Below, one piece after another: positions 10,486 through 50,252 of a DNA stretch of 64,000 bases; within the stretch, counting starts at the first letter, position 1, and the number at the start of each line of letters is the position of its first letter. The notes under the pieces were generated by a model, which saw only the letters and a list, made by a program, of their open reading frames with translations, was not told where the DNA came from and ran no database searches. The translations under genes and the position numbers were made by a program. The DNA lies in the NCBI GenBank assembly GCA_963696645.1, contig CAVOKY010000011.1, positions 470,858-534,857 on the forward strand, given 5' to 3'. The DNA comes from an uncultured Alphaproteobacteria bacterium (GTDB lineage Bacteria > Pseudomonadota > Alphaproteobacteria > Acetobacterales > Acetobacteraceae).

Positions 10486-10495
10486 GGAGAATGCC

Positions 10496-11742: not shown

Positions 11743-12603
11743 ATGTCTCTCAATTCAGTGAATACGAACTACGGCGCGATGATCGCGCTGGAGTCGCTCG
11801 ACGCGACCAACTCGGCGTTGCAAGGTGTTCAGAAGCAGGTCTCTACTGGCTATCGCGTGGCGGACTCGACAGATGATGGTGCAGCCTTCGCAGTGGCTCA
11901 ATCGGTCCGCTCGACGGTGGGGGCACTGACCACCGCCAATCAGCAACTCGGCAACGTGCAGGGATTGCTGGCCACCACGCAGACGGGCCTGACAAGCGTC
12001 TCCCATACGATGGCCAGCATGCGTGATGTGCTGGTATCTCTGGCGGACTCCAGCGTGACCGGCAACGAACGGACCCAGTACATTGCCCAGTACAATTCGT
12101 TGCTGGCGAACGTGAAGACCTTCATCCAGGACGCCGGCTACAACGGCAAGACGCTGATTGGCAACATCTCGGGCTCGACCGGCGTAATGGCGCGCGTAGC
12201 TGTGGTGCGTAACGAGAACGGCGCTTCCTACGCCATCGCCTCGTACAGCGGCTCAGCGTTGTACGGGTCGATCGCCTTTACCTCGACGCAGCTCAACGGT
12301 GCGGCCACGGTGGCAACGTTGATCGGCACCTCGGCGACGACTGCCGCGTTCATCGATATGCAAAACAGCGTCGGCGGCGAGTTGAATACGATCGGCGCCT
12401 CGGTGAACTACGTGAACAACCAGATCAGCTATAACAGCAACAAGGTCGATGCCTTGAATACTGGCCTTGGCGCGCTGGTGGACGCCGATCTGGCCAAGGA
12501 GTCTGCCTCATTGCAGGCCCTGCAGATTCGCCAACAGTTGGGCACGCAAGCCCTGTCGCTGGCCAATCAGGCACCACAGACGCTGCTGAGCCTGTTCAAG
12601 TAG
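11743..12603 (+). CDS. fliC: flagellin
   Basis: N-terminus SVNTNYGAMIALESLDATNSALQGVQKQVSTGYRVADSTDDGAAFAVAQ. C-terminus DADLAKESASLQALQIRQQLGTQALSLANQAPQTLLSLFK. At 286 aa it is a short alphaproteobacterial-type flagellin. Confidence 0.93.
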   Translation: MSLNSVNTNYGAMIALESLDATNSALQGVQKQVSTGYRVADSTDDGAAFAVAQSVRSTVGALTTANQQLGNVQGLLATTQTGLTSVSHTMASMRDVLVSLADSSVTGNERTQYIAQYNSLLANVKTFIQDAGYNGKTLIGNISGSTGVMARVAVVRNENGASYAIASYSGSALYGSIAFTSTQLNGAATVATLIGTSATTAAFIDMQNSVGGELNTIGASVNYVNNQISYNSNKVDALNTGLGALVDADLAKESASLQALQIRQQLGTQALSLANQAPQTLLSLFK

Positions 12604-12622
12604 CAGCGAGAGCCAGGAGTGA

Positions 12623-12651
12623 CTTCGGGTCGGCCCGCAGCCGGCCCGAAG
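12623..12651 (+). terminator. stem-loop downstream of flagellin (weak terminator candidate)
   Basis: cttcgggtcggc-ccgca-gccggcccgaag forms a 12-bp stem with one mismatch, starting 20 nt after the flagellin stop. No T-tract follows, so it may be an attenuating or stabilising hairpin rather than an intrinsic terminator. Confidence 0.35.
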
Positions 12652-12744
12652 CTGGTTCCCACTGACGACCCGGCAGATCGCCGGTGACACTGTCAAGGCC
12701 GCGTATCGTCATGGAAACGGACGAGGCGAAGCAGGAAGTGGCGC

Positions 12745-13212
12745 ATGTCCAATCTTGTCCTAGAGCTTCGCCAGGGCGAAGTGATGATCGTCAATGGCGC
12801 TCCCATCCGATTCCGCACGAAATCGCGCATCGAGCTGACGGCCAAAGCCCGGTTTCTCTTCGGCAAGCAGATTATGCCGCCTGATCAGGCCGACAGTCCG
12901 GCGCGGCGTATCTACTTCGCCTTGCAATCAGCCTATATCGGCACCGATGATGAACGTGCCCGCGGGCTCGACGCGGCTCGCGACCTGATTGCGGCCTTCA
13001 AGCAGGCGACCACATCGGCGCTTGTATGCGAGATCCTGGACCGCGCGATGAGCGCAGCGGAGGCCGACGAATGCTACCAGGCCCTCAAGCTCGCGCGACG
13101 AATCATTCGGCACGAAGACACCGTCTTGCACCGTTTGTCGGAGCATGCCGGTGGCGAGCCGGCACGATCTGTGTCATCTCAGAGGGATCTACCACAGCCA
13201 TGCCCACCATGA
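12745..13212 (+). CDS. flbT: flagellar biosynthesis repressor FlbT
   Basis: LVLELRQGEVMIVNGAPIRF...KQIMPPDQADSPARRIYFALQSAYIG...YQALKLARRIIRHED matches what I recall of Caulobacter/Brucella FlbT. It overlaps the flaF start by 13 nt. Confidence 0.85.
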   Translation: MSNLVLELRQGEVMIVNGAPIRFRTKSRIELTAKARFLFGKQIMPPDQADSPARRIYFALQSAYIGTDDERARGLDAARDLIAAFKQATTSALVCEILDRAMSAAEADECYQALKLARRIIRHEDTVLHRLSEHAGGEPARSVSSQRDLPQPCPP

Positions 13213-13547
13213 GTCAGGCGGCCGGCGCCTATCAAACCGCGGCAACGCATCGCACCCAACGCGCGCAGGAGGCGGATGTATTTCGGCGTGCCACCGGTGC
13301 GCTGAAGGCGGCGCGCGATGCAGGCAGCATCCAGCGCGTACAGGCGATTGCCGACAATCGTCTTCTTTGGGCAACAATCACCGATCTGATGCGGGATCCG
13401 CTCAATGCTCTGCCAGAGCAGTTGCGTGCGGCAATCATCTCGGTCGGCATGACCGCTCGGCGAGAGATGGACCAGGTGTCACCCAACTTCGACTTCCTGA
13501 TCGACATCAACGAAAACATTGCCGCGGGCTTGTCCGAGCAGAGCTGA
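13200..13547 (+). CDS. flaF: flagellar biosynthesis regulator FlaF
   Basis: In-frame ATG at 13200 within ORF 13026..13547. AYQTAATHRTQRAQEADVFRRATGAL...NRLLWATITDLMRDPLNALPEQLRAAIISVG...FDFLIDINENIAAGL resembles FlaF. Confidence 0.85.
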   Translation: MPTMSQAAGAYQTAATHRTQRAQEADVFRRATGALKAARDAGSIQRVQAIADNRLLWATITDLMRDPLNALPEQLRAAIISVGMTARREMDQVSPNFDFLIDINENIAAGLSEQS

Positions 13548-13592
13548 ACAGAAAAACATCCCTGAATACAACCGGCTCAAAAGGAGCCTCGC

Positions 13593-15050
13593 ATGGAAAC
13601 GTTGCAAGCTACCACCGATACCGGCGCCTTGACCGCACGGATCGCGGCACTGATTGGCGCGGGGCGCCCGGCGGCAGCCCGACCTCTGCTGACAGCGGTG
13701 CGCCGGCGTTCAGCGCCTTCGCCATATCTCGCGGAACTGGCCACGCGGCTCGCGCTGTGCGAGGGGCGCAACGAATTGGCCCTTCAGGAAATAAGTAGGG
13801 CTATCGAGCTGCATCCTGGTCACGCCGGCCTGCATAAATGCCGAGCCGATGTCCGCATGCTGATGAACGACTGCGAAGGCGCGGCACGAGACGCGGCGGA
13901 AGCGGTAATACTCGACAGCGGTGATCCTGCGGCCAAGGCACTCCTCGGCCTTCTGATGTTGGAACTCAAACGTCCCGCCGACGCAATCGCATGCCTCAAC
14001 GAGGCGGTTTTCACCGACCCGTGCAATGCCGTCTATCGCCAGGGCCTTGCTGCCGCACAGGAAGCGAGCGGAGATACAGACGCAGCGCTTGCCACACTCG
14101 ACGCCGCAATCGCAGCCGCGCCCGCCTGCGTGGAATTGCGCAATGCCGCCATCCTGCTGTTGGTTCGGCGGCGCGATTTCACCGCCGCCTACCGCCTCGG
14201 TGAGGCGTCCCGCGTCGCCGGCGTGGCGGATGCATGCTCATTCGGCCTCATGGGCCATGCGCTTTCCAGCCTCGGCCGCCACGCCGAAGCCGAGGACGCC
14301 TATGCCGACGCGCTCAAGCTTGGACCCAACGACCCTTATGTGCGCCACCTCGTCGCCTCCTCGGGTATCGTATCGGGCGCCGCCCGCGCACCCATTGAGT
14401 ATTTGCAGGTCGTGTTTGATGGCTATGCCGATCGCTTCGAAAGCCACATCATCTCACTAGGCTATCGCATCCCGGGCCTGGTCCGGGCGACACTCATGCA
14501 GCACCCCAAGATCGTGGCCGGACAGCGTCTTGGGCCCGTGCTCGATCTCGGCTGTGGTACCGGACTGTTGGCTGTCGTCCTCTCGGACATGGCCGTCGGC
14601 CCGTTGGTCGGCGTCGATGTGTCTACGGGCATGCTTGCTCAAGCAGCGGCCAAGCACCTCTATTCGGAGTTGCACGAGGCTGACCTTATGCGGCTGCTCG
14701 CAGACGATCCAACACGATGGCAGCTCGTGCTGGCGGCCGACGTGTTCATCTACTTCGGCGCCTTGCCGGAGATGCTGGCGGCCGTGCATGCGCGATTGGA
14801 GCCAGGCGGCTGGTTCATCTTTTCCTTGGAGGAATTGCTTCCCGACCACGACGGTATCGTGCATGGCAACGGAGACTGGGCACTCCAGCGGATGGGCCGC
14901 TACGCGCACAGCATGTCCTACGTCTCCCGCGCGGCACGCGACGCCGGTTTTGCCGTCCGGACGCTGGAACGTCAGACCGTGCGACATGAGGCGGATGCAG
15001 AGGTCGCCGGCATCTACGTCGTGCTGGAGCGCGTCCGCCATGACGGCTGA
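13593..15050 (+). CDS. TPR-repeat protein fused to a class I SAM-dependent methyltransferase
   Basis: SD AAGGAG. The N-terminal half is TPR-like (AIELHPGHAGLHKCRADV..., LNEAVFTDPCNAVYRQGLA...). The C-terminal half has motif I VLDLGCGTGLLAVVL, then VGVDVSTGML, LVLAADVFIYFG and GGWFIFSLE. The reading frame is intact. Confidence 0.8.
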   Translation: METLQATTDTGALTARIAALIGAGRPAAARPLLTAVRRRSAPSPYLAELATRLALCEGRNELALQEISRAIELHPGHAGLHKCRADVRMLMNDCEGAARDAAEAVILDSGDPAAKALLGLLMLELKRPADAIACLNEAVFTDPCNAVYRQGLAAAQEASGDTDAALATLDAAIAAAPACVELRNAAILLLVRRRDFTAAYRLGEASRVAGVADACSFGLMGHALSSLGRHAEAEDAYADALKLGPNDPYVRHLVASSGIVSGAARAPIEYLQVVFDGYADRFESHIISLGYRIPGLVRATLMQHPKIVAGQRLGPVLDLGCGTGLLAVVLSDMAVGPLVGVDVSTGMLAQAAAKHLYSELHEADLMRLLADDPTRWQLVLAADVFIYFGALPEMLAAVHARLEPGGWFIFSLEELLPDHDGIVHGNGDWALQRMGRYAHSMSYVSRAARDAGFAVRTLERQTVRHEADAEVAGIYVVLERVRHDG

Positions 15051-17403
15051 CGCGGCGCTTGCGCTGCTGAATGCCGGTGATGCAGCCGGCGCGCTTGCCT
15101 TGCTGGACGATGCGGTGCCGCCTGGTGAGCCCGATACCGCGTGGCTCGTGGCAAGGGGCATGGTGCAACTCGCGAACGACCATCCAGCAGAAGCACTGAC
15201 CGCGCTGCGGACAGCAGTCGCGCTCGGTGACACGATGCCAGCGACATTGTTGAATCTGGCACTGGCGGAAGACAAGGCTGGCGACCCGGCACGCGCTCGT
15301 CACCTTATGGAGGCGCTCGAGCACCACCTTCCAGAGTGGGACGAGCCGCCATTACGGCTCGCGGAATCCCTGCGCGCCGCGGCTAAATTCCATGACGCCG
15401 AACTGGCCTACGGCCGCACGCTCGAGATCAACCCTCGCCGCGAGGCTGCGCTTCTGGGTTTGGGCGGCCTGTTGATCATGCGCGGCGAGGCCGAGGCTGC
15501 ACGCAAACTGCTGTTGCGCTGCTGCGACATCGCACCCGCGCGCGCCGAAGCCTGGGATACGCTCGGTCGTGCATTGATGCAGACCGACGACAAGCCCCTC
15601 GCTGAAGCGGCATTTGCCGAGGCGCAACGTCTGTCACCGCATACGCTGGAATATGCGCTGCATCGGGTCGGTGCCGCGCTCGCTGCTGGAACGGGCGAGC
15701 CTCTCCTGGCCTGTCTGCTGTCCGCCGCCGACAATGATCCGCTGAATCCGGCACTGCCCACGGCGCGCGGTGTCCTGCTGGAAAGATTGGGTCGACGATC
15801 CCAATCTATCGATGCACTGGAAACGGCAGCAGCCCTGGCGCCCGAAGCGCAGCTGCCAGCGGCGCTGCTCGGCGAATTGCTCGCCCGAGCCAACCGCCTG
15901 GATGAGGCAGAAGCCACGCTACGACATGCCATCGAACTGGATCCCGGCAATCACCATCTCGCCAACGCCCGCGCCACTGTGCTGTTCCGCATGCAACGTC
16001 ACGCCGATGCACGCGCCGAACTGCTTGCATCGATCGAGCGCAACGGCGAGCAGGTGACCGAACTGTGCCAATCTTGCCAATGCCACCACATGCCTCGGCC
16101 TGCAGCAGGAGGGGGTCGCCCTGGCGCGGCGCGCCATCGCGCTCGCCCCGGAGGCAACGCTGCTGCGGCGCATACTGTGCAACGCGCTGCCGTATCGCGA
16201 TGGTATCACTGGCGCCGAAATGCTTGCCGCGCTGCGTGAGTGCTCCGACCGGCTGCCGCGCGACCATACTGCCGGTGTTCGCCAACGATGCCAAACCCGG
16301 ACCGCCCGCTCGTCATCGGCCTGCTGTCGGGTTCGCTGCGGATCCATCCGGTGGGCTGGCTGACCGTCGCCGGGTTCGAGACGCTCGATCCCGCGGCCTT
16401 CACCCTCGTCTGCCTGGCGCAGAACGGCTCGCATGACTGGATCGCCCGCCGCTTTCGCGACTCTGGCGACGCGAATGGCATGACGTCGACATGCTCGACC
16501 GACCCGGCTGCTTGCGGCGAAGGCGCGCGACCTCGGGATCGATGTCCTGATCGATCTCGGCGGCTATGGCGACTCGGCGCGCATGACGGCCTGCGCCTAT
16601 CGCCTGGCACCGGTGCAGGTGAAATGGGTCGGCATGCAGAACCACAGTTCCGGCCTGGCGGAAATGGACTGGATCATCACCGATCGCTGGGAAACGCCGC
16701 CGGAGCTGGAGCATGTCTACTCCGAGCGCCTGCTGCGGATGCCGGACGGCTACGTGTGCTACAGCGCGCCGCCCTATGCGCCGGACGTCGTGCCATTGCC
16801 GGCACTGGCCAACGGCCACATCACCTTCGGCTGCTTCAACAACCTGGCGAAGATCACGCCCCGCGTCATCGCCACCTGGTGCACCATCCTGCATCGGCTG
16901 CCGGACCGCACGCCTGGTGCTGAAGACCCACCAGTTTGCCCATGCGCCGACCGCCGAACGCGTGCTGGCCGAGTTTGCCGCACACGGCATCCCACCAGCG
17001 CGGCTTGACCTGCGAGGTGGCTCGGCGCACCGGGCCTTCATGCGCGAGTACAATGACATCGACATCGTGCTGGACCCGTTCCCCTATTCCGGCGGCCTGA
17101 CCACCTGCGAGGCGCTGTGGATGGGCGTGCCGACAGTGACTGTTCCCGGCGAGATTTTCGCCTCGCGCCATTCGGTGAGCCATCTGAGCAACGCCGGCCT
17201 GGCCGACTGGGTGGCCGCCGACCTTGCCGCCTACGTGGAACTTGCCGTGGCGCGGGCCTCCGACATTCCGGCGCTGGCTGCGCTGCGATCCGGCTTGCGC
17301 GCGCGGGTCAAGGCGAGTCCGCTGTGCGATGCGCCGCGCTTCGGCCGCAACCTCGGTGCCGCGCTGCGCCATCGCCTGGCAGGAGTGGTGCGCCGGACAA
17401 TGA
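15040..17403 (+). pseudogene. FlmG-like TPR + GT41 (SPINDLY/O-GlcNAc-transferase-like) glycosyltransferase, multiply frameshifted
   Basis: ATG 15040 overlaps the upstream stop. The TPR region is intact to about 16065 (ORF 14530..16239). The glycosyltransferase domain is then split over ORFs 16065.., 16240.., 16583.. and 16713... Recognisable pieces include DRPLVIGLLSGSLRIHPVGWL, YRLAPVQVKWVGMQNHSSGL, GHITFGCFNNLAKITPRV, IVLDPFPYSGGLTTCEALWMGVPTVT and AWQEWCAGQ* ending at 17403. I count at least 6 frame changes, near 16068, 16255, 16300, 16460, 16905 and 17370. Confidence 0.7.
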
Positions 17404-38988: not shown

Positions 38989-40558
38989 TTACCGCGGCCG
39001 GCCCGCAACACCTGAGCGGAACAACAGCGTCAGCGGCACGATGCAGAACGCGGCAACGGCCGTGTATGTATATAGATCCGTATAGGACAGGATCGCCGCC
39101 TGCTGGTTCAGCGTCTGATTGATGAGACCCATCGCCGCATCATGCGCGCCGGCAGCCGTCTGACCCATCGCCTCCAGCGCATGCGTGTCGTGCGACAGCA
39201 ACTCCTGGTACGGTTGATCGAACGCACCCAGATGGCCGGCAAGATAAGCGCGGTGCGCCTGCATGCGTTCCGCGCCCATCGCCGTGACGACCGCGATGCC
39301 GATCGAGCCGGAAATGTTGCGGAACATCGAATACAGCGCGGTGGCATCCGCGGTCAGCGAGCGCGGCAAGGTCGAATAGGACAGCGTGCTGTTGGGCACG
39401 AACAGGAACGCCAGCCCGATGGTCTGGAACGTGCGGAACATGGCCAGCGTCCAGAAATCCATCTGCGGCGTCAGCCGTGCGGCAAACGCCGACGAACACC
39501 CGAGGATGAAGAATCCGAACGCAATGACATAGCGCGTGGAGATGTTCGGCAGCACCACCCTGGCCACGACCGGGATGAACAGGATCATCACCGCGGCGCC
39601 CGGCGACAGCAGCAAGCCTGCCAGCAAGGCCGTGTAGCCGAACCATTGCTGCGCCATCACCGGGATCAGCACGTTGCTGGAGTACAGGATCGCGCCGATC
39701 CCCGACACCGTCACCACGCCGACGCCGAAATTGCGATCCTTCAGGCAGCGCAGGTTGACCACGGGCTTGTCGACCATCAACAGCCAGGCAGTGCCGCCGA
39801 CGATGCCCACCGCCGCCGAGCAGCGCAAAGATCCGGATGGTGGGGGAGCTGAACCAGTCCAGGTCCTCGCCGCGGTCCAGCATGATCTGCAGCGAACCCA
39901 GGCCGAGTGCGATCAACGCCAGTCCGCCATAGTCGATGTCGCGCAGATGCGCGCGATCGCGCTGCACCCAGGGCGGATCCTCGACCAGCTGCATCACCGA
40001 GATGAAGGCAAAGATGCCGACCGGCACGTTGATCAGGAACACCCAGCGCCATGAGTAGTTGTCGGTGATCCAGCCGCCCAGGGTCGGGCCGATGATCGGC
40101 GCGAAGATCACGGCGATCGCCACCAGCGAGAACGCCCGCGCACGCTGCGACGGCTCGAACGTATCGAGGATGACCGATTGCTGCGCCGGCTGCAGCCCGC
40201 CGCCGAACAGGCCCTGCAACAGCCGGAACACGACAAGCTCCGGCAGGCTGGTGGCGATGCCGCACATGAACGAGCAGACGGTGAACATCGCGATGCAGAT
40301 CAGGAAATACCGCTTGCGCCCGATCAGCCGACCCAGCCATCCCGCGACCGGCACGACGATGCCGTTCGCCACCAGGTAGGAGGTCAGCGTCCAGGTTGCA
40401 TCGTCATTGCTCGCCGACAGCGCGCCGGCGATGTTGGGCAGGCTGACATTGACGATGGTGGTGTCGAGGATCTCCATGAACGGCGCCAAGGTCGCCGCGC
40501 CGGCCACCAGCCAGACGCTGCCCCTGGGACGCCACGTCGCATCCAGCAGGTCGCTCAT
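38989..40558 (-). pseudogene. emrB: DHA2-family MFS multidrug efflux permease (EmrB/QacA-like), single frameshift near 39825
   Basis: The N-terminal 240 aa are in ORF 39140..40558 (ILDTTIVNVSLPNIAGAL...WRWVFLINVPVGIFAF...). The remaining TMs are in ORF 38989..39828 (LKDRNFGVGVVTVSGIGAILYSS...FRNISGSIGIAVVTA...). The junction is IRIFALL|AAVGIVGG. Confidence 0.75.
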
Positions 40559-41830: not shown

Positions 41831-43603
41831 CTACTGGACCAGCGCCTGGCTGCGCACCAGTCTGGCGTAGAGACCGTTCTGGTCGAGCAGCGCGGCGTGG
41901 GTGCCCTGCTCCACCGCCCGACCGTCCTGCATCACGACGACCAGATCGGCGTCGCGCACGGTGGACAGCCGGTGGGCGATGACGATCGTGGTACGGCCCT
42001 TCCGCAGATGAGCGAGCGCGACCTGAATGGCCGCCTCACTTTCGGTGTCGAGCGAACTGGTCGCTTCATCCAGCAGCAGGATCCGCGGATTGCGCAGCAG
42101 GGCGCGGGCCAGTGCCACCCGCTGGCGTTGCCCGCCCGACAGCCGTTGTCCGCCCGGTCCGACCCGCGTGGCATAGGCGTCGGGCAGTGCGGCAATGAAC
42201 GAGGCTGCCGCTGCTGCTTCGGCGGCAGCCTCGATGTCGCCATCCACCGCATCCGGATGGCCCATGCGAATATTGGCCGCGACCGTGTCGTCGAACAGCA
42301 GCGTGTCCTGCGCGACGTAGGCAATGGCGTCGCGCAGGCTGGCCAGCGTCACCTGCCTGACGTCAGCGCCGTCGATTCGGACAACGCCGGCAGTGGCGTC
42401 GTGAAGGCGCGGAATCAGCGCCAGTGCGGTCGACTTGCCGGCACCGGACGGGCCGACCAGCGCGACCGTGGTGCCGGGGCTCGCGGCGAAGCTGAGGCCC
42501 GCCAGTGCGACGCGGCCGTCCGGATAGATGAAGTGCACATCGTCGAACGCGACATGGCCGCGGCCCGCCGGCAGGGGTTCGGCACCCGGCAGGTCGGTGA
42601 TCCGAGGCCTCTCGTCCACCACGGCGAACACGCGCACCAGGCCGGCGAGGCCTTCCTGCAACGCCGCATTCAGCGAGCCGAGGGCACGCAGTGGACGCGA
42701 GGCGATCAGCAGTGCGGCGACAAACCCGGTAAAATTGCCGATCGTCTGCGAGCTGATCGCCGCGCGCCAACCGGCGAAGCCGATCACCGCCGCGACCGCG
42801 GCGCCGCCCAGCACCTCCAGCACCGGATCGACCCGGGCCCGGCTCCTGGTCATTCGCAAAAGCGCGCGGTAAAGCTGGGCGAACGCGTCCTCCGCCCGAT
42901 GGGTCTCCGCTGCTTCCAGCCGGTAGGCGCGCACGGTGCGGGCCTGCGCGAAGCTTTCGTTGAGCAGCGCCGCGGTCTCGCCCATGCGCTCCTGCATGCC
43001 GCCCGAGGCACGCCGGATGCGCTTGCCGATGCGCTGGATCGGCACCGCCGCCAGCGGATACATCGCCGCCGCGATCAGGCTGAGCAGCCAGTCGAGATAC
43101 AGCATCGAGGCGACCAGGCCGATCACCGTGACGACGTCGGCGATGCCGTTCACCGTGCGGGTGAGCGCGTCGCGGATGATCGTCGCATCCGTGGTGAATC
43201 GGGCGGCGAGCTGCGCCGGCGCCTCACGCTCCAGCCGCGCCAGGTCGGCGTACGCGAGATGCGCGAACATGCGGCCCTGCAGTTCACGGATCACCAGCAG
43301 CACGATCTGCTGCACCTGCACGTTCTGGAAATACTGCGCCGCGGCCTTGATCGAGGTGATGGCAACGACCAGCGCGGGAATCTGGTACAGGATGCGCTGG
43401 TCGCGGTTGGTGAACATCTCGAAGGCGTGGTCGATCACCACCGGATACAGCGCGGTGGTGCCCGCCATCACGACAGTCAGCACAAGCACCAGCAGCAGGC
43501 GCGGCTTGTGGTGGCTGATGTGCTCGCGCCACAGTCGGCCAAGCAACACGCGCGTCGTGTCGCGGTTGGCCTTCAGGTCGATGCGGGGCGTGGCGGCATC
43601 CAT
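41831..43603 (-). CDS. ABC transporter, fused permease/ATP-binding (MsbA/exporter type)
   Basis: A six-TM N-domain is followed by Walker A GPSGAGKST, the signature LSGGQRQRVALARAL and Walker B ILLLDEATSSLD. 590 aa, frame intact. Confidence 0.88.
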   Translation of the reverse strand: MDAATPRIDLKANRDTTRVLLGRLWREHISHHKPRLLLVLVLTVVMAGTTALYPVVIDHAFEMFTNRDQRILYQIPALVVAITSIKAAAQYFQNVQVQQIVLLVIRELQGRMFAHLAYADLARLEREAPAQLAARFTTDATIIRDALTRTVNGIADVVTVIGLVASMLYLDWLLSLIAAAMYPLAAVPIQRIGKRIRRASGGMQERMGETAALLNESFAQARTVRAYRLEAAETHRAEDAFAQLYRALLRMTRSRARVDPVLEVLGGAAVAAVIGFAGWRAAISSQTIGNFTGFVAALLIASRPLRALGSLNAALQEGLAGLVRVFAVVDERPRITDLPGAEPLPAGRGHVAFDDVHFIYPDGRVALAGLSFAASPGTTVALVGPSGAGKSTALALIPRLHDATAGVVRIDGADVRQVTLASLRDAIAYVAQDTLLFDDTVAANIRMGHPDAVDGDIEAAAEAAAAASFIAALPDAYATRVGPGGQRLSGGQRQRVALARALLRNPRILLLDEATSSLDTESEAAIQVALAHLRKGRTTIVIAHRLSTVRDADLVVVMQDGRAVEQGTHAALLDQNGLYARLVRSQALVQ

Positions 43604-43674: not shown

Positions 43675-43708
43675 CCGTCATCGCGAGAAGCGCAACGACG
43701 CGGCACCG
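43675..43708. repeat. degenerate REP-like copy
   Basis: ccgtcatcgcgagaagcgcaacgacgcggcaccg resembles the CTGTCATTGCGAGGAGCGCAGCGACGCGGCAATC core with several substitutions. It abuts the truncated paralogue remnant. Confidence 0.45.
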
Positions 43709-43881
43709 CGCTGCCAACGCGCGTCGGCGGTTCGGTCATGGTGGGCAGGCCTGCCTTCCATATCTCGAAATACGCTTCGGCGCCATTGGGATGCCATTGG
43801 GATGCAGGATGATCGTCGCGTCCATGCCGAGTTGCGCCAGCGGCGCAAGCCTGGCCTGGTCGAATACGCCGGCGGCACGCA
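43709..43881 (-). pseudogene. truncated remnant of a third copy of the 550-570-aa paralogue family (C-terminal end only)
   Basis: The minus-strand reading ...FDQARLAPLAQLGMDATIILHPNG[IPNG]AEAYFEIWKAGLPTMTEPPTRVGSAVP parallels the C-termini of the two full copies. Those read FPVIVYPNASEVYFEIWPQNLTIDIRLGVRVGGTVPA and FPVTMHPNGAEVYFDFWPSGLAIDTRHGVRIGGSVPA. An 11-bp tandem duplication (ccattgggatg at 43783-43793 and 43794-43804) breaks the frame. Confidence 0.6.
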
Positions 43882-45588
43882 TCAGCGAGGCGCCAGCACC
43901 GACGCGAGGTGAAGGCTTCCCTTCAGCATCCCCATCAACGGTGTCTCGTTGAATTGGTTCACCACAATCGCCGGCACCGTGCCGCCCACACGCACGCCCA
44001 AACGTATGTCGATGGTAAGATTTTGCGGCCAGATCTCGAAGTATACCTCCGACGCATTGGGATACACGATCACGGGGAAGCTGAAATCACCCTCCTGGCA
44101 CAGCTTGTTGAACGCTCCCTGGATCACCTTATGGATGCGAAACAGATCCTCGCGACCCACGAATTCGGCGAACAGCGCACGGTAGAATTCGCGCACGACG
44201 TCGATTTTCCCGCGCAGCAGGGTTGAGGACACAATCGGGCGTCGCCGCCAGTTATCGTCGACATCGGTGAACAGCTGCAGGCGATGGACATTATAGTCGG
44301 ATTCGCCGATGGAAACCGGGCCTTCACTGAATACCGACAGGCCAACGGTCTTGCTCAGGAAAGGGTCGCGCAGGAAACCAGCGTGCAACGTATCGATCAG
44401 CAGCACCTGGTCGAGCTGCACCGATTGGTCCGCGGCCAACTCGTCCAGCACATGACTCAGATGGATATGGGCGACATTGTTGACGTCGATCTCCGCGGCA
44501 ACGGGCGCGCTCGTATGGGCGACGGCGCCGTACCTCCGCAGCAACACGAGATCGTTCGCGTCGAGTGCGCCAACGCAATGGATTCCGCCGGCAAAGCCAA
44601 CGGCACGCAGGGTGGCGAGAAACGGCTCCAGCCAGTCCGCGTCACGTTCGCGATGATAAAAGCAGACGACAGCATCGGTTGTGTCGGCCGTGTCGGGCTT
44701 CACCGGTAGCGGCGGGGCCGCAATGGCGCGACTTCGCACCATCGGATAGCGTGGTTCGACCTTGGCATCGAGTCGGAACTGTGGCGCCGCCTCCACGTAC
44801 TGGCGCAGCTTTTCCTTGCGATCCCACTGATGAATGACCGGCACCAACCGCCCATCGATCAGCACACCGCGCTGGTCAATGCTCATCGCCTCGTCCGGCA
44901 TGTAATTCATGGTCGAGACGATGGTATCGCCCGCGTCGCAGAACGCGTTTTGCATCGGCCGCATGCGGGTGACGTAGTTGTGGACGCCCTGGTCCATACC
45001 ACCCAGAATCGGGATCGGCCGCCCCGCCATCTCGTGGATCATGGCGGTAAGATATTGCTGCATTCCGCGTGCCGTGCCGAAGGTGGTACCCGAGCAGGAC
45101 ACCATGCAGTGCCGCAGATTGTCGGCCATCGCCTCGCCATACGCCTGGATCAGCCAGCTCCGATTGACCGGACAGTCGCCAAGCGTGATGCGCTCCTGCG
45201 CGAATACCAGGTCGGCGGGCAACGGCCTCGCGAACGGATCGGCCTGGAACAGCACGTCGCGCAGATCGGAAATCATCACGTTGGCGTATTCACCGCCGTG
45301 GCGCCCCAGGTAGTCCAGGTAGCTGTAGTAGCGGCTGCCCTGGTAGTTCAACTGTGGCAATGCGAAGCGGCAGGCGCGCTCAACGATGACGCCGTGCGCC
45401 AGCAATGTCCGCACCGTGTCGGCGGGCACTTCATCCACGAAAATACATAGGTCACCGTCGAACGTGGTACGGCGCAACGATGCGATAAACCGCTCCAGAC
45501 CGCTGAAGGGCAGCCTCGACCAGACGCCCATTATCAGATTTTTCCGGCCGCTCATGGCATCAGCACAGCCGTCGACTGGCGTGGCCAT
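43882..45588 (-). CDS. hypothetical protein, paralogue 1: two tandem GT-A-like (nucleotide-diphospho-sugar-transferase-like) domains
   Basis: Intact ORF. The start is ATG 45588, or ATG 45555 (MSGRKNLIMGVW), which aligns with the paralogue-2 N-terminus MNGAKHLIMGLW. Each half begins with a beta-strand plus F..SLR motif (LIMGVWSRLPFSGLERFIASLRRTTF / AVVCFYHRERDADWLEPFLATLRAVGF). Each half also contains an x-D-x-x-x-x-F-x-x-DPF motif (VMISDLRDVLFQADPF / VLLIDTLHAGFLRDPF). Confidence 0.6.
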   Translation of the reverse strand: MATPVDGCADAMSGRKNLIMGVWSRLPFSGLERFIASLRRTTFDGDLCIFVDEVPADTVRTLLAHGVIVERACRFALPQLNYQGSRYYSYLDYLGRHGGEYANVMISDLRDVLFQADPFARPLPADLVFAQERITLGDCPVNRSWLIQAYGEAMADNLRHCMVSCSGTTFGTARGMQQYLTAMIHEMAGRPIPILGGMDQGVHNYVTRMRPMQNAFCDAGDTIVSTMNYMPDEAMSIDQRGVLIDGRLVPVIHQWDRKEKLRQYVEAAPQFRLDAKVEPRYPMVRSRAIAAPPLPVKPDTADTTDAVVCFYHRERDADWLEPFLATLRAVGFAGGIHCVGALDANDLVLLRRYGAVAHTSAPVAAEIDVNNVAHIHLSHVLDELAADQSVQLDQVLLIDTLHAGFLRDPFLSKTVGLSVFSEGPVSIGESDYNVHRLQLFTDVDDNWRRRPIVSSTLLRGKIDVVREFYRALFAEFVGREDLFRIHKVIQGAFNKLCQEGDFSFPVIVYPNASEVYFEIWPQNLTIDIRLGVRVGGTVPAIVVNQFNETPLMGMLKGSLHLASVLAPR

Positions 45589-45599
45589 CGGCAACGGAT

Positions 45600-47048
45600 C
45601 TATCGGCCGGTACTGAATGGCACAGCAAGGCCAAGATTTTCCCCGACGACGATCGGCACAAAACGATTGTCGCAGAACACCAGGTCGATACCGAGAGCCA
45701 GCTCACGCCCGGCCGGACGTGCAGCGTCGTACAGCAATTCGCAATCTACCCCACAGCACAGACAATTCCAGGCCGCATAGCAGCCCTCCCGGTTCAGTGC
45801 GAGCTGCACATCCGCGCGCGGCAGCCACACCGGCGTCTCGCGAGCCACGCCATCAATCGTCACACGTACCGATTTGATGTCAGCGTTGGCGAGGCACCAA
45901 CCATCCAGCTTGACCCGCAAGCCAGCGGGCGTGGCTTCCGCAAGCAGCGACAACACCCAGCGCAGCGGCATGCCGCCGCCAGTGACGTCCGCCTCGCTGC
46001 AGCGCCGCGGAGTGGGCGGTTCGATGCGCGGAACAGGTGCCACGCTGTGCGGCCAAGCGGGTTTGGTCAGCCAGAACAGGTAACCTGGCGACATGTCCCG
46101 GGCATTCAGCAGTGGCAGGTAGCGGTTGGCATAGATCGGCCAGAGTCGCATGATCTGCCCGGCGAGTGGTTCGCCGACCCGCAGCCTGGCCAGCAGCGCG
46201 CCGCTGCTGAAAAGTCCATCCGGATCGGGACTAGAGGGCAGAGCCTCGGCGGTGGTGAAGCCAGCCTGAAGCGCCATGGCCTCGAACACTTCGCCGTTGA
46301 ACATGTGCTTATCCTCGCACTCGGCCAGGGCCGCGACGTCGTCCTGCAACACAGTACGCTTGCGAGCCTCGGCAACCCAGTTATGCAACACCTGCCGGTC
46401 ATCGGAGAATGTCGGGTCGCGCGCCAGCAAGAATGCCAGGATATCGGCAAATGCCATGGCCAGGACCCGCCCGAAGCGATAGCTCGGCTCAATGAACCAA
46501 GCCAGGCCACCGGGCCTGAGGATGCGCCAGACATCGGCAAGGAATGCGCCGACATCGGTAATGTGATGCACGACAGATCCACCGACACAACTGTCGAACA
46601 CCGCATCGCGAAAGCACGGTTCATTCGCGCTGTAGGTCGCAAAGCACACCGGAGGTGCGGCCGCATCACGCAACCGATCGAAATTGGCACGGCAAAGCCG
46701 GAGCATATCCGTCGACACATCTGTCAGCACGGCGTCCACAGCGTCGCGATGTCGGAGGATCGAACGGGACAGGGCGCCCGTTCCGCAACCGATCTCCACC
46801 ACCGAGCCAAGTGATGCCGGCCAGCGGTGCGCTGCAACTTGTTTGTACGATTGATACGCCGCCTCCGAACTGGCGTCCTGCACCGTGTTGATGACGTCGT
46901 AGGTATCGGCATCAAGCTGCGTGGCGAAACGGCCGCCCACGAAATCCAAAATGCCATCGGCGGTGGCAAACGACCGGTCACAGTCCACGCAGGCGCCAAA
47001 TTCGGCGGCCAATGGACCGCGGCAGACCGGACACTGGAACTTGCTCAG
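45600..47048 (-). CDS. zinc-ribbon (Trm112-like) + class I SAM methyltransferase + C-terminal beta-rich domain protein
   Basis: Motif I is VVEIGCGTGALSRSIL, followed by VLTDVS, FDSCVGGSVVHHI and GGLAWFIEP. The N-terminus has ...CVDCDRSFATADGILDFV. The matching CPVC half (KFQCPVCRGPL) lies upstream of the track start TTG 47012, reachable only from CTG 47048. The C-terminal 100 aa (VKLDGWCLANADIKSVRVTIDGVARETPVWLPRADV) resemble accessory domains of surface-glycan enzymes. Confidence 0.65.
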   Translation of the reverse strand: MSKFQCPVCRGPLAAEFGACVDCDRSFATADGILDFVGGRFATQLDADTYDVINTVQDASSEAAYQSYKQVAAHRWPASLGSVVEIGCGTGALSRSILRHRDAVDAVLTDVSTDMLRLCRANFDRLRDAAAPPVCFATYSANEPCFRDAVFDSCVGGSVVHHITDVGAFLADVWRILRPGGLAWFIEPSYRFGRVLAMAFADILAFLLARDPTFSDDRQVLHNWVAEARKRTVLQDDVAALAECEDKHMFNGEVFEAMALQAGFTTAEALPSSPDPDGLFSSGALLARLRVGEPLAGQIMRLWPIYANRYLPLLNARDMSPGYLFWLTKPAWPHSVAPVPRIEPPTPRRCSEADVTGGGMPLRWVLSLLAEATPAGLRVKLDGWCLANADIKSVRVTIDGVARETPVWLPRADVQLALNREGCYAAWNCLCCGVDCELLYDAARPAGRELALGIDLVFCDNRFVPIVVGENLGLAVPFSTGR

Positions 47049-47070
47049 TACCGGTGACCATCGGCCGAAC

Positions 47071-48723
47071 TCAGACTTCCGATAGGCTGAGGTCGATCCT
47101 CAGCTTGATCATCAGCGGCGTCTCCGGATTGCCGCCCAGAACCACGGCCGGCACGCTGCCACCGATGCGCACACCATGCCGCGTATCGATCGCAAGACCG
47201 GACGGCCAGAAGTCGAAATACACCTCGGCGCCATTCGGATGCATGGTGACCGGAAACCCGAGGTCGCCGACATGGCACAGCTTGTTGACCGCACCCTGGA
47301 CGACCTTGTGCATGCTGAGCAGGTCCGGCCGCCCGATCAGTTCGGCAAACAGCCGGCGGTAGAATTCGCGCACCGTCGGCATGGTCCCCCGAAACACCGA
47401 TGAAGACACAACGGGAACCTGCAACGAGCTTTGTTCCGGTGGCACGAAGAGTGCCAACCGGTGCCGATTGTAGTCCGAATCGGCGATACGTGTCGGGCCT
47501 TCCCAGAACACCGACAGGCCAGGTGTGGTGCTCAGGAACGGATCGCGCGGAAACACGGCGCTCATGCTGTCAAGCACCAGCACACGGTCCGGCATCGCCG
47601 CCTGGTCGGCTGCCAGCTTGTCGAGCACCTGGCTCAGATAGAAGTGCGCAATATTTTCCGCAATTCCGGGTTCGCTGGCGGGAACCTGATAGACGACGCA
47701 ATCATGGCGCGCCAGAACGTCCAGTTCGTGCGGTTCGAAATTGCCGACGCAATGCATGGTGACCGCGCCGGTAACGCAACGCAGACTGCCCAGAAACAGC
47801 TTCAGCCAGGCCGCGTCGCGATCGCGTTGGTAGAACGCGACGACCGCGTCGCCGGCAGCGGTCGCTGCTCGTGCGTCGGACGGCGCGGGTTCGCCAGCGG
47901 GTTCTGCTGCCGGCCATGCGCCGCGCATGGAGTCATCCGCCTGAAATCGTGGCGTCGCATGGACAAACGCGCGCGTCTTCGCATTGTCGTCCCAATGGCA
48001 CAGCACCGGCACCGGTCTGCCGTCGATCAGAACCTGCTGATCCGCGACCTGCACCAACTCATTCGGCAGCGCGCGCACCGCGGCGGCGACCAGGCCGGCC
48101 GGATCGAGCCAGGCGTCGGCGAGCGGACGCATGTGGACGACGTAATTGTGCACGCCCTGATCGATCGCGCCGGTGATCGGTGTCGTCCGGCCGCTCAGTT
48201 CCTGCGTCATCGCCACGAGATAGCGCAGCATGCCGTCACGCGTGCCGATGGTGCTACTGGCACTCACGCACAGGCAGTCGCGGACGTTGTGCGCCACCGC
48301 CTCGCCGTAGGCCTGTACCACCGCATCATGATCCGCCACTGACTCGCCAAGCCTGCGGCGCGTCGATGTGTAGACGATGGCGGCGGGCAGCGGCGCGGCA
48401 AACGGATCGGCCTGAAAGACCACGGCGGCCGGATCGGCCAGCATCACCTTGGCGTAGTCGTCGGCGTGCCGTGTCAGAAAGTCCAGATAACTGAAGTAGC
48501 GGCTCGCCAGCGCTGTCATGCGCGGCTGGGCCGACGGCCCGGTGCGCACGACGATGATGCCGTGGTCCCGAAGCTGGGCGATGGTATCGGCGGAGATATC
48601 CTCGACGCAGAGGCAGACGTCACCGGCGAATGTGGTGCGGCGCAGGGACGCGATGAACTTCTCCAGATGCCGGAACGGCTGCCGGGCCCACAGTCCCATG
48701 ATCAGGTGCTTGGCGCCGTTCAC
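47071..48723 (-). CDS. hypothetical protein, paralogue 2: two tandem GT-A-like domains
   Basis: GTG 48723 is preceded by GAGG. It is collinear with paralogue 1 along its full length. Shared pieces include HLIMGLWARQPFRHLEKFIASLRRTTFAGDV, VMLADPAAVVFQADPF, IDQGVHNYVVHMRP, AVVAFYQRDRDAAWLKLFLGSLR, VLVLDSMSAVFPRDPF and HKVVQGAVNKLC. The frame is intact. Confidence 0.6.
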   Translation of the reverse strand: MNGAKHLIMGLWARQPFRHLEKFIASLRRTTFAGDVCLCVEDISADTIAQLRDHGIIVVRTGPSAQPRMTALASRYFSYLDFLTRHADDYAKVMLADPAAVVFQADPFAAPLPAAIVYTSTRRRLGESVADHDAVVQAYGEAVAHNVRDCLCVSASSTIGTRDGMLRYLVAMTQELSGRTTPITGAIDQGVHNYVVHMRPLADAWLDPAGLVAAAVRALPNELVQVADQQVLIDGRPVPVLCHWDDNAKTRAFVHATPRFQADDSMRGAWPAAEPAGEPAPSDARAATAAGDAVVAFYQRDRDAAWLKLFLGSLRCVTGAVTMHCVGNFEPHELDVLARHDCVVYQVPASEPGIAENIAHFYLSQVLDKLAADQAAMPDRVLVLDSMSAVFPRDPFLSTTPGLSVFWEGPTRIADSDYNRHRLALFVPPEQSSLQVPVVSSSVFRGTMPTVREFYRRLFAELIGRPDLLSMHKVVQGAVNKLCHVGDLGFPVTMHPNGAEVYFDFWPSGLAIDTRHGVRIGGSVPAVVLGGNPETPLMIKLRIDLSLSEV

Positions 48724-48792: not shown

Positions 48793-50010
48793 TCAGGACC
48801 GTCGGGCATCATGCGCGTTGGCATCCGCCAGGCGCCGTACCAATTCGCCGCGGCACGCCGCCTCGCCGGCAACGCAGCCGCCATCCAGCCACCAGCGTCG
48901 CACATCGCGCAGCAGGGCGCCGATGCGCGGGCCCTCGGGCTCGCCCAGCGCCAGCACATCACGCCCCTCCAGCGGGAAAACCGGACGCGGCAGCGCGGAC
49001 AGGCGGGCTCGCAACGCCGCCCATTCCGGCGCGGCGCCGCCGGCCAGCCAGCTCCGGTCAAGCAGGACCGCCGCCGCTTCGTCCGCCAGCAGACGCCGCA
49101 ACACATCGTCATCCATGTCGGGCCGCGGCACCGAGCCGCCGCGCAAGCCTACCAGCCGGTCCCGCTCCGCCACCGACAGCCGCAGTCGTGCAGCCAACGC
49201 CAGCGGATCGCCGGTCAGCAGCGCTGCAAGCCGCAGCAGCGCATCGGGTGGCGCACCCGCCTCGACCAGCCGCTCGAGGCGTGCCGGGTCGGCACCTTCC
49301 GGCAGCACTGCGTCCAGCACGCCGAGGTCCGCCATCTGGCCAATCGCGGCTCGCGGATCGGGCGCGGATAAAATTCGACCAAACTCGCTCCACACGCGCT
49401 CCGCCGACAATCCCGCCAGTCCCGGCACGCCTGCGCGGATCGCCGCCAGCGCTGTCGGCTCCGCCGGTCCCGCGCCATAGCGGGAAAAGAACCGGAAGAA
49501 GCGCAGGATGCGCAGATAATCCTCGGCGATGCGCGTCGCGGGATCGCCGACGAAGCGCACACGCCCGGAGCGCAGGTCGGCCACGCCGTCGAAGTAGTCG
49601 AACACTGCGCCGTCGCGTGTCATCGACAGCGCGTTGATGGTGAAGTCCCGGCGCGCCGCGTCTGCCCGCCAATTGTCGGTGAATGCCACAACGGCGTGGC
49701 GCCCGTCGGTCTCGACGTCGCGCCGCAACGTGGTGATCTCGAAGCCATGTCCGTCCACGACCGCGGTCACCGTGCCATGGTCCAGCCCGGTCGGCACGGC
49801 ACGTATCCCGGCAGCTTGCAGCGCCTGAACCACCTGCGCAGGCTCGCGCGGGGTCGCCAGATCGACCTCGGTGACCGGTCGCCCCGCAAGCGTGTCGCGC
49901 ACCGCGCCACCGACCACCCGCGCCTCGGGGAGCACCGCCATCACCGATGTCAGCGCGGGCTCAGCCAGGAAGGCGGGAGGCGGGATCAACAGGGCGGGCG
50001 CCTCAGTCAT
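48793..50010 (-). CDS. cca: CCA tRNA nucleotidyltransferase / poly(A) polymerase family protein
   Basis: ATG 50010. It contains ARVVGGAVRDTLAGRPVTEVDLAT, TGLDHGTVT, TLRRDVETDGRHA, RDFTINAL and EDYLRILRFFRF, the head-domain motifs of class II nucleotidyltransferases. Confidence 0.85.
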   Translation of the reverse strand: MTEAPALLIPPPAFLAEPALTSVMAVLPEARVVGGAVRDTLAGRPVTEVDLATPREPAQVVQALQAAGIRAVPTGLDHGTVTAVVDGHGFEITTLRRDVETDGRHAVVAFTDNWRADAARRDFTINALSMTRDGAVFDYFDGVADLRSGRVRFVGDPATRIAEDYLRILRFFRFFSRYGAGPAEPTALAAIRAGVPGLAGLSAERVWSEFGRILSAPDPRAAIGQMADLGVLDAVLPEGADPARLERLVEAGAPPDALLRLAALLTGDPLALAARLRLSVAERDRLVGLRGGSVPRPDMDDDVLRRLLADEAAAVLLDRSWLAGGAAPEWAALRARLSALPRPVFPLEGRDVLALGEPEGPRIGALLRDVRRWWLDGGCVAGEAACRGELVRRLADANAHDARRS

Positions 50011-50252
50011 TGCGGCGCCGCGTGGCCCGGAATCACCCGGCCATTCTGCAGTTGCGCGGGTGCGTAGACGGTACCCGGCGGCAGTGCCGCCTCCTGGCTG
50101 AGCCAGATCATGGTGCCGATCAGCAGGATCACCACACCGGCGGTGGCGATGACCAGTCGAATGGACGGGCCGCGTTCCAGCGCGAACACGCGCCAAACAC
50201 CAAATGCCGCGAATGGGGCGAGGAACAGCGCCAGTTCAACCAGTCGAAGCAT
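50007..50252 (-). CDS. small membrane protein (hypothetical)
   Basis: MLRLVELALFLAPFAAFGVWRVFALERGPSIRLVIATAGVVILLIGTMIWL has two predicted TM helices. Its stop overlaps the cca start (ATGA), and its start overlaps the end of the Nudix gene. Confidence 0.5.
   Translation of the reverse strand: MLRLVELALFLAPFAAFGVWRVFALERGPSIRLVIATAGVVILLIGTMIWLSQEAALPPGTVYAPAQLQNGRVIPGHAAPQ

Follow-up and report, generated by a model that had tools for sequence, protein, structure and literature searches.

What do two large paralogous proteins, ParA and ParB, and the methyltransferase (MT) encoded between them do in an uncultured alphaproteobacterium of the Acetobacteraceae? Their genes lie in a 64,000-nucleotide stretch, here called the window (contig CAVOKY010000011.1 of assembly GCA_963696645.1, positions 470,858 to 534,857), and had initially been described as three co-directional minus-strand open reading frames (ORFs) between an ATP-binding cassette (ABC) exporter gene and cca, an arrangement with which the coordinates agree:

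47071-48723, minus strand: parB, encoding a ParB-type double-domain GT-A-like protein (550-aa ORF); core gene of the slot, adjoining cca
45600-47012, minus strand: MT, encoding a class I S-adenosylmethionine (SAM)-dependent methyltransferase (470 aa counted from a TTG)
43882-45594, minus strand: parA, encoding a ParA-type double-domain protein (570-aa ORF)

The slot occupied by these genes marks where synteny passes from the cca block to an MsbA-like ABC/EmrAB block in a clade of uncultured soil Acetobacteraceae. With a probability of roughly 0.55, the cassette is a lineage-specific, variable-copy unit of soluble cytoplasmic GT-A-fold glycosyltransferases (GTs) plus a SAM-dependent MT, which would decorate and methylate a lipid-linked envelope glycan before export. 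A glycan- or surface-modification role, as proposed in the initial annotation, is the best-supported reading, on the basis of the genomic contexts and domain fusions of distant relatives and of the presence of one relative, GtrOC6, in a lipooligosaccharide (LOS) outer-core locus. The cassette would then represent a known kind of enzyme in a new architecture, from a family that is under-annotated, and the prediction of a sugar transferase with an MT is useful rather than surprising.

ParA and ParB are collinear, with 48% identity over 553 columns, and each arose by duplication of a ~260-aa domain within the protein. The N- and C-terminal halves of each protein match one another in BLASTP (E 6e-6 to 2e-8, ~25% identity) and in profile-profile comparison (probability 97.5-98.5%), and the C-terminal halves are found by a family hidden Markov model (HMM) built solely from N-type and single-domain sequences (E 2e-16 for ParA and 4e-13 for ParB). 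The AlphaFold2 (AF2) model of ParB, built on 36 homologues, has a pLDDT of 91 and a pTM of 0.91, and contains two alpha/beta domains (residues ~4-262 and 293-545) with a disordered linker. Foldseek searches of the PDB with the whole protein returned GT-A enzymes only (LH3 at E 7e-12, GlyE, LARGE1, K4CP and PmHS2), and one domain matched GT6 enzymes (alpha-1,3-GalT, the ABO enzymes GTA/GTB, and BoGT6a; TMt 0.55-0.66); the Foldseek probability was 1.00 to many GT-A structures, among them LH3, GT6, GT8, K4CP and LARGE1. The modelled structure supports the description of ParA and ParB as double GT-A-fold, glycosyltransferase-like proteins. Transmembrane segments were predicted in none of the three proteins of the cassette. 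Scans of ParA and ParB against Pfam, NCBIfam, PHROGs and PADLOC returned no family, and a PDB sequence search with ParB or with a 58-sequence family profile gave no meaningful match. The initial annotation is thus upheld where it saw collinear paralogues, an internal duplication in each, a GT-A-like character and proteins that fit no named (curated Pfam, NCBIfam or PHROGs) family, and the motifs that it quoted are all found in the sequence.

The wider family was delineated by an exhaustive phmmer search with the ParA N-domain, which recovered 2570 representative clusters (counted at 50% identity) at E<=1e-3 and 1308 at E<=1e-10. This family, defined by alignment A5 and the HMM built from it, is referred to here as GtrOC6-like. 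Most of its members are single-domain proteins of ~260-330 aa, and single-domain relatives were found in a genome scan in many bacterial phyla and in one archaeal metagenome-assembled genome (MAG); all full-length two-domain homologues are from uncultured Acetobacteraceae or alphaproteobacterial MAGs. The family signature reads D97-x-(R/K)-D100-V-x-F-Q-x-D-P-F; E121; N131..W134..(Y/F)G; C-S-G-x-T-x-G; D188-Q-G-(V/I)-H192-N-(Y/F); H242-Q-Y-D-R, and its 23 near-invariant residues are R75, D97, D100, Q104, DPF, E121, N131, W134, G140, C154, G156, G160, Y168, D188, Q189, H192, N193, H242, Q243, D245 and R246. The numbers of D97, D100 and H242 count from Met14 of the ParA ORF, where they are D110, D113 and H255. 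Met14 (ATG 45555) is the likely true start, giving a protein of 557 aa; homologue alignments begin at this residue, and a 557-aa cluster member is known. The DxxD motif directly follows strand 4, the standard position of DxD in GT-A enzymes, and both of its Asp residues are present in 112 of 122 single-domain representatives (HQDR in 93 of 122).

No family member scanned passes a Pfam family threshold, and the Pfam GT families are all negative for ParA and ParB. Six distant single-domain relatives had no Pfam match, and a scan of 58 relatives gave marginal matches only: PF03407 Nucleotid_trans in 8 of 58 (best E 6e-4), DUF7780 in 4 of 58 and the PLOD GT family PF25342 in 1 of 58 (E 0.0044). 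PF03407, a GT77-type family of the GT-A clan, is the only curated family touched by several relatives. Membership of PF03407 or CAZy GT77 was rejected, given that ParA, ParB and the six distant relatives have no match at E<=1 and that the matches of other relatives (8/58) are marginal.

The genomic contexts of distant members point to glycans. Six of the seven contexts looked up are neighbourhoods of glycan synthesis or decoration, five of them clear polysaccharide clusters, of which two (L054 and L058) are mutually homologous and so not independent; in L053 methyltransferases are the only flanking clue, and L060 has no glycan context. The clusters contain GT2, GT4, GT11, GT61, Wzy, Wzx, Wzm/Wzt, NeuB, NodZ and carbamoyltransferases, with methyltransferases nearby. 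Fusion partners among the ten multi-domain members scanned are GT61 (five times) and, once each, GT2, a rhamnosyl-O-MT-like Methyltransf_24 domain and tetratricopeptide repeats (TPR). The GtrOC6-like family has no Pfam or NCBIfam model and is labelled 'hypothetical' almost everywhere, yet sits in O-antigen, exopolysaccharide and LOS-core loci; defining it would improve the annotation of glycan loci, including the typing of Acinetobacter outer-core loci (OCL).

In the viral structure library BFVD, uncharacterized single-domain proteins of ~260 aa from phages and giant viruses match with TMt up to 0.84 (A0A6J5LJS2, A0A1P8DJL0 and A0A6N1NM99 at 0.76-0.84, from uncultured tailed phages and Tupanvirus). 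A tblastn search of INPHARED, a collection of cultured-phage genomes, with the ParA N-domain gave no match. An anti-phage defence system was also considered and rejected, as the PADLOC models matched neither ParA nor ParB; MT matches mad2 solely through its generic MT domain.

The family member with the most informative setting is GtrOC6 of Acinetobacter baumannii. A tblastn search of PLSDB matched three A. baumannii records, two of them chromosome-sized and the third 561 kb long. The two large records, NZ_CP064203.1 (locus L061, 58408-87310) and NZ_CP077849.1, are 3.7-4.0 Mb in length; they are filed as 'plasmids' in PLSDB and are evidently chromosomes. The gene order of L061 is ilvE, Mito_fiss_Elm1, Glyco_trans_1_2, deacetylase, GT2, GT4, GINT1_N (opposite strand), GT25, the family member (309 aa, no Pfam match), Stealth and aspS. 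This locus is the OCL1 form of the LOS outer-core locus, and its family member is GtrOC6 (GenPept AGK44458; Kenyon, Nigro & Hall, 2014). GtrOC6 scores 226 bits on the family HMM (E 2e-71), contains the whole signature and is ~26% identical to the ParA N-domain. It was tabulated by Kenyon et al. as 'Hypothetical, Pfam n/a' and was named a glycosyltransferase because seven transferases are required for OC1 (PMC4172580). Insertion of the insertion sequence ISAba23 in gtrOC6 was reported to make the LOS slightly shorter (PMC4110982; PMC4172580). Assembly of the core oligosaccharide takes place on lipid A, on the cytoplasmic side of the membrane, and MsbA then flips the product (PMC10936431). The initial annotation had called the cassette the best candidate for an undescribed module; this stands in that no Pfam model covers the proteins, and falls in that a family member, GtrOC6, has already been named and has mutant evidence. 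Elsewhere in the same locus, GtrOC7, which had no Pfam match in 2014, now shows Stealth CR1-3 domains, and the 'ghy/orf1' gene matches GINT1_N.

How far does the comparison with GtrOC6 reach? The window proteins belong to the same sequence family, of which GtrOC6 carries the signature as DxRD..QxNPF, N..W..YG, SCSG, DQxxHN and HQHDR; neither it nor the window proteins have a Pfam model, and GtrOC6 is a soluble single GT-A-type domain in a pathway that assembles a glycolipid core in the cytoplasm. However, GtrOC6 has one domain in 309 aa and lies within a classical seven-transferase cluster between ilvE and aspS, whereas the window proteins are alphaproteobacterial, have two domains and stand alone with one MT beside cca and an MsbA-like exporter. 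No donor, acceptor or linkage specificity can be transferred from GtrOC6 to the window proteins.

The four GT-A domains of ParA and ParB differ in what they retain of the signature:

44773-45546, minus strand: ParA N-domain, canonical catalytic-type GT-A (family HMM 313 bits; 23/23 signature residues)
43945-44646, minus strand: ParA C-domain, accessory-type GT-A, with LIDTLHAGFLRDPF and VIQGAFNK (family HMM E 1.9e-16; 10/23)
47938-48714, minus strand: ParB N-domain, diverged GT-A (family HMM 251.6 bits; 14/23)
47089-47847, minus strand: ParB C-domain, accessory-type GT-A, with LDSMSAVFPRDPF and VVQGAVNK (family HMM E 4e-13; 9/23)

The ParA N-domain contains DLRD (45256-45267) with QxDPF just downstream, DQGVHNY and HQWDR (44818-44832). 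An acidic DxD-type motif after beta-4 is present in this domain (D-L-R-D, the DxxD variant also found in LH3) and absent from the ParB N-domain (D-P-A-A) and from the C-domains (D-T-L-H and D-S-M-S). ParA-type N-domains keep 18-23 of the 23 residues across loci, usually all 23, and the same holds for the N-domains of more distant two-domain relatives. Since these relatives likewise pair a canonical N-domain with an accessory-type C-domain, the architecture is ancestral. The two paralogues are not equivalent: ParA is canonical, whereas the presumed metal-site signature is largely gone from ParB.

The C-domains score 36-47 bits on the family HMM in ParA and ParB and, throughout, keep 8-10 of the 23 residues (D97, DPF, E121, N131, G160, Q189 and N193). 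They form a conserved subtype of their own, with invariant R422, R445 and K481. Columns that are at least 90% conserved number 43 of 259 in the N-half and 55 of 253 in the C-half; the two halves are thus about equally constrained, which indicates that the C-domain is functional and not decaying. This equal conservation would also fit a bifunctional enzyme, in which both GT-A domains are catalytic, the C-domain working without metal through its conserved Arg and Lys, and which adds two sugars or polymerizes a disaccharide repeat for ABC export. E. coli K4CP, Pasteurella PmHS2 and LARGE1, all among the best structural matches, are two tandem GT-A domains in one polypeptide of ~550-700 aa, as are the window proteins. 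The C-domain keeps equivalents of D97, DPF, E121, N131, Q189 and N193, its invariant R422, R445 and K481 stand where the N-domain has W, I/T and Y, and Arg replaces the second metal-binding Asp in most C-domains. However, both domains of K4CP, PmHS2 and LARGE1 bear DxD and are active, whereas the window C-domains lack the second Asp, D188, H192 and HQxDR: H192 is missing in every C-domain examined, D188 is replaced in almost all, and HQxDR is mutated in the ParA C-domain and unaligned in the others. Such an enzyme is also without precedent within the family, and such polymerases are served by KpsMT- or Wzm/Wzt-type transporters, whereas the one next to the cassette resembles MsbA. Two active sites per protein are thus considered rather improbable.

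ParB departs from the canonical pattern in its N-domain. D97, QxDPF and DQGVHNY are retained, while the second Asp of DxxD (DPAA), E121, N131/W134, the CSG motif and HQxDR are gone. ParB-type N-domains retain 12-17 of the 23 residues in every genome: D100 is replaced by T, A, G or S in most, N131 by V or D and W134 by A, and the CSG motif and HQxDR are lost. Many single-copy species (L002/L015, L017-L024, L026 and L028; gene at 10001-~11450) have a shorter ParB-type form of ~481 aa, in which the N-domain has lost its final ~60 residues, the HQxDR segment and the linker among them. Without the presumed metal ligands, ParB cannot work by the canonical mechanism. ParB would then be an old, clade-wide paralogue with the presumed metal site of its N-domain lost, having either an altered, metal-independent chemistry or a non-catalytic role. 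One slot thus displays a natural series of domain decay, from canonical ParA, through ParB with a dismantled yet still constrained metal site, to an accessory GT-A domain.

Two further proposals bear on ParB. The first holds ParB-type proteins to be pseudo-enzymes that serve a housekeeping purpose unrelated to glycans and tied to the cca operon, such as nucleotide-sugar sensing, scaffolding or RNA-related chemistry, so that only ParA and MT act on glycans. The ParB N-domain lacks 6-11 of the 23 near-invariant residues in every genome, the second Asp and HQxDR included, and the HQxDR segment is deleted entirely from short forms; a family gene lies beside cca at short same-strand spacing in 25 of 26 loci; and ParB is well conserved, with ~60% identity between species in both domains. 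Against this, the cca block is a housekeeping block with wide conservation, so that adjacency may mark a synteny breakpoint only; D97, QxDPF and DQGVHN are retained; and the occurrence of MT with ParB alone in two species loci (L006 and L012) suggests a common pathway. This proposal is decidedly improbable. The second is that ParB is a repurposed GT, with the Mn2+ site of its N-domain dismantled and its Arg/Lys-rich C-domain serving as a metal-independent active site or a glycolipid-binding module, and that ParB, ParA and MT together make up a hitherto unrecognised pathway, coupled to MsbA, by which lipid A-core receives a methylated sugar. We regard this specific version as unlikely. If it were true, the GtrOC6-like family would merit recognition as a new GT family with a DxxD/HQxDR catalytic signature.

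In the preferred reading, lipid-linked glycan modification, the steps would be as follows. The ParA N-domain would bind a nucleotide-sugar through the non-canonical DxxD (D-L-R-D), and the His of HQWDR is probably the third Mn2+ ligand, as in LH3 (D112/D115/H253). H242 is proposed as a metal ligand because the D100-H242 spacing (142 residues) resembles that of D115-H253 in LH3 (138). ParA would transfer one sugar to a lipid-anchored envelope glycan at the cytoplasmic face of the inner membrane, the acceptor being most plausibly lipid A-core, or another lipid-linked oligosaccharide. MT may then O-methylate either the newly added sugar or one next to it, after which the product would be flipped or exported, and the MsbA-like transporter encoded alongside is a plausible candidate for this step. 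The C-domains may be conserved accessory modules that bind the acceptor or contact a partner, and LH3 offers an analogue in its AC domain. Gain and loss of ParA-type copies and of MT would generate glycan diversity between species.

Several observations weigh against this reading. The assignment of metal ligands is based on motif position and spacing, not on residue-level superposition, and the role of GtrOC6 derives from one natural insertion mutant and from counting the transferases needed. ParB, the sole copy in 15 of 26 species, lacks the presumed metal ligands, and in many species the HQxDR segment is missing entirely. Genes for a priming transferase, sugar-nucleotide synthesis, a flippase, a polymerase or other lipopolysaccharide-core functions are absent within ~8 kb. 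The transporter scores below the MsbA equivalog cut-off (481 vs 602 bits), at least 6 of the 26 loci have no copy of it at the slot, and the family genes have cca and other housekeeping genes as neighbours more consistently than they have the transporter. Finally, a more distant MT homologue (P0214, 45% identity) lies in an unrelated context.

Human LH3/PLOD3 (PDB 6FXK/6FXR/6TEZ) is the top whole-protein structural match, with E 7e-12 over ~565 aligned columns. In LH3, a non-canonical DxxD (D112, D115) and H253 bind Mn2+, and a second GT-A-fold domain, 'AC', is non-catalytic (PMC6082870). A GT-A domain with DxxD plus a downstream His, followed by a second GT-A-fold domain without a catalytic motif, is common to LH3 and the window proteins, and it is in this respect that their accessory domain is comparable to AC. 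Unlike LH3, however, the window proteins have no C-terminal 2-oxoglutarate/Fe(II) lysyl-hydroxylase domain and are not proteins of the secretory pathway; identity is 10-12%, and the domain orientation differs (rmsd ~22 Å, TM 0.25). Collagen as their acceptor is very unlikely. Membership of the LH3/PLOD GT family (PF25342) was rejected, as the window proteins have no Pfam match and no third domain; the likeness is structural and architectural only. The best single-domain superpositions were obtained with retaining GT6 and GT8 enzymes (bovine alpha-1,3-GalT, human GTA/GTB, BoGT6a, GlyE and the LARGE1 Xyl-T domain; TMt 0.55-0.66, ~262 columns, rmsd 4-6 Å), which have the GT-A Rossmann-like fold and an acidic motif after beta-4 in common with the window proteins. 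Unlike in these enzymes, the motif is DxxD, not DxD, and there is no match to Pfam Glyco_transf_6 or Glyco_transf_8 at E<=1; this likeness gives no inference on retaining or inverting chemistry.

That LH3 and GlyE, the best whole-protein matches, are protein-modifying GTs raises the possibility of a protein glycosylation system, in which the double-domain enzymes modify a protein acceptor and the C-domain is a protein-binding module (as with the hydroxylysine of collagen for LH3 and serine-rich adhesins for GlyE). The fusion of one family member to TPR repeats and the lack of lipid-linked-glycan genes nearby are consistent with it. On the other hand, most distant members lie in polysaccharide or LOS clusters, the phenotype of the gtrOC6 mutant is an altered LOS size, and no candidate acceptor such as a repeat-rich adhesin or a pilin is encoded nearby. 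The chance that the cassette glycosylates a protein is therefore judged to be small.

MT is a SAM-dependent methyltransferase, as the initial annotation had it, and belongs to class I, with Pfam MT domains above their cut-offs: Methyltransf_12 at 55.1 bits (cut-off 30), Methyltransf_11 at 52 (21.2) and Methyltransf_25 at 51.4 (27); the Ubie_methyltran threshold is also passed. Its AF2 model has a pLDDT of 88, with the MT core at residues ~60-320, and Foldseek matches to RebM/AtmM, PMT, Coq5 and BioC-type MTs are generic class I matches that cover the core alone. The core passes Pfam thresholds and superposes on the structures of the sugar 4'-O-MTs RebM/AtmM and of UbiE/Coq5, BioC and PMT; MT, however, scores far below every NCBIfam equivalog cut-off, and its N-terminal 4-Cys ribbon and orphan C-terminal beta-sandwich are absent from these enzymes. 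A UbiE/MenG function was rejected, with 39 bits for TIGR01934 against a cut-off of 158 and 32-34 bits for the PRK00216 models against 216-378. As the scores are so far below the UbiE equivalog cut-offs, the 'UbiE' labels on MT homologues (JGI) are over-annotation. The beta-sandwich (residues ~350-470, or ~330-470 when taken as 45600-46022, minus strand) is well conserved, with GWCLANADIK..VRVTIDG..PVWLPRADV..WN.LCCG, and its profile has no match in the PDB or Pfam.

All three genes of the cassette had been taken to be intact, which for MT is doubtful because the first CxxC lies upstream of the first canonical start codon. MT homologues carry the 4-Cys ribbon in their N-terminal part, and the corresponding first half is encoded in the window as:

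47013-47061, minus strand: in-frame upstream extension of MT with the first CxxC of the 4-Cys ribbon (FQCPVC, 47022-47039), preceding the first canonical start, TTG 47012

Relative to this extension, the ancestral ATG (47059-47061) is shifted out of frame by +1, with 22 nt and not 21 ahead of the F codon; an independent Logan contig (L057) has 23 nt there, a shift of +2. This region could reflect a frameshift, a CTG start or an assembly error.

The likeness of MT to natural-product sugar O-MTs (RebM, AtmM) and small-molecule MTs, together with the adjacency of the ABC exporter and of EmrA and EmrB homologues, would fit a GT and an MT that make a methylated glycoside—a glycolipid or a detoxified xenobiotic—for efflux by ABC and EmrAB-type pumps. 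However, the fold matches of MT are generic class I, scaffold-biosynthesis genes are lacking, the contexts of relatives point to polysaccharide and LOS, and emrB is frameshifted in the window. This small-molecule role is highly improbable.

The slot was compared across 26 species-representative loci of related Acetobacteraceae MAGs. A family gene lies directly downstream of the DUF1285-nudix-DUF6111-cca block in 25 of the 26, and a ParB-type gene adjoins cca in 24; L027 has ParB without cca, and in L030 a ParA-type gene is beside cca. The slot is followed by the MsbA-like ABC exporter, EmrA and EmrB in 18 loci. It holds one to three family copies, with or without MT, in the following configurations:

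ParB-type alone: 15 species loci
B-A: 3 species loci
B-A-A: 2 species loci
B-MT: 2 species loci (L006, L012)
B-MT-A: 3 species loci, plus this window
A alone: 1 species locus (L030)

MT and the second paralogue, ParA, thus occur independently of each other. Whether the trio is conserved, as the initial annotation asked, has a divided answer: the paralogue-MT-paralogue arrangement recurs in three other species, but it is only one of six slot configurations. In L030 (10001-11642), L010 (10001-13357) and L025, the family genes are frameshifted and are either pseudogenes or assembly artefacts.

Is the cassette an island, as was initially suggested? Its GC content of 0.628 compares with an average of 0.661 over the window (sd 0.019 for windows of equal length), and 9.5% of such windows are equally low. 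The suspected AT-richness is therefore real but modest, and GC at third codon positions (GC3) is 0.72-0.79 in the cassette genes, like that of the neighbouring cca and nudix genes (0.77-0.79 for cca, nudix, DUF1285 and moxR); only the ABC and HlyD genes are higher, at 0.86-0.87. A GC dip was observed at the orthologous slot in all 12 related genomes checked, which indicates that the low GC has long been intrinsic to these genes and does not point to recent import. Recent acquisition as a genomic island would account for a GC content 3 points under the window mean and for the variable gene content of the slot. Against it, the genes lie at the same position in 25 of 26 related species with the identical dip in 12 of 12 relatives, GC3 resembles that of the housekeeping genes alongside, integrase and tRNA genes and flanking repeats are all missing, and the ParA and ParB types split before the species did. 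As a rival explanation, a recent island is barely credible: a recent origin by horizontal transfer is contradicted by these observations and essentially excluded. The term 'island' does not survive, given that the cca-adjacent paralogue is syntenic and conserved in this clade and the dip is present in all relatives. Formal genomic-island status was likewise rejected, with no tRNA, Rfam match, integrase or flanking repeats, GC3 equal to that of the neighbours, and the slot filled in 26 of 26 loci. The only other stretch of the window that is equally AT-rich lies at ~6000-16000 (GC 0.60-0.63), where the minimum 4.8-kb window, at 7701, has a GC of 0.616.

The immediate surroundings of the cassette are as follows:

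48793-50196, minus strand: cca, encoding CCA tRNA nucleotidyltransferase; upstream neighbour and last gene of the DUF1285-nudix-DUF6111-cca block
41831-43603, minus strand: MsbA-like ABC exporter, 590 aa; downstream neighbour and candidate flippase/exporter of the modified glycolipid
43701-43793, minus strand: relic of one more family copy, a pseudogene fragment from its conserved C-terminus, HPNGAEAYFEIWKAGL...RVGSAVP (E 6e-7 in tblastn against ParA residues 511-541)

The top NCBIfam match of the exporter is TIGR02203 MsbA_lipidA, with 481 bits against a cut-off of 602, followed by MsbA_rel, HepA and glucan exporters. The tRNA and Rfam scans of the whole window were both empty, and the repeat scan found paralogue-derived repeats only, with none flanking the cassette. 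In the Pfam-annotated orthologous loci, flippase and sugar-nucleotide genes are absent within ~8 kb; together with the window scans, this agrees with the initial statement that no integrase, flippase or sugar-nucleotide gene is adjacent. Promoters and terminators were predicted across 43.4-50.4 kb in numbers within or close to those expected from shuffled sequence, with none between genes.

Further to the left, a damaged region had been reported, which agrees with a frameshifted emrB (minus strand; EmrB-type major facilitator superfamily gene, 38992-40558, downstream of an EmrA homologue). The frameshift falls at ~39806-39816, where tblastn with the L001 orthologue passes between frames -1 and -2 at ~39810. 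Sister assemblies (L003 vs L002) are similarly fragmented, so that a long-read assembly error is possible.

The relic consists of 31 codons inside the 278-bp gap between parA and the ABC gene, and it also appears in DNA repeat families D2 and D8. The presence of a remnant of another copy in this gap indicates gene birth and death, that is, turnover, in the slot.

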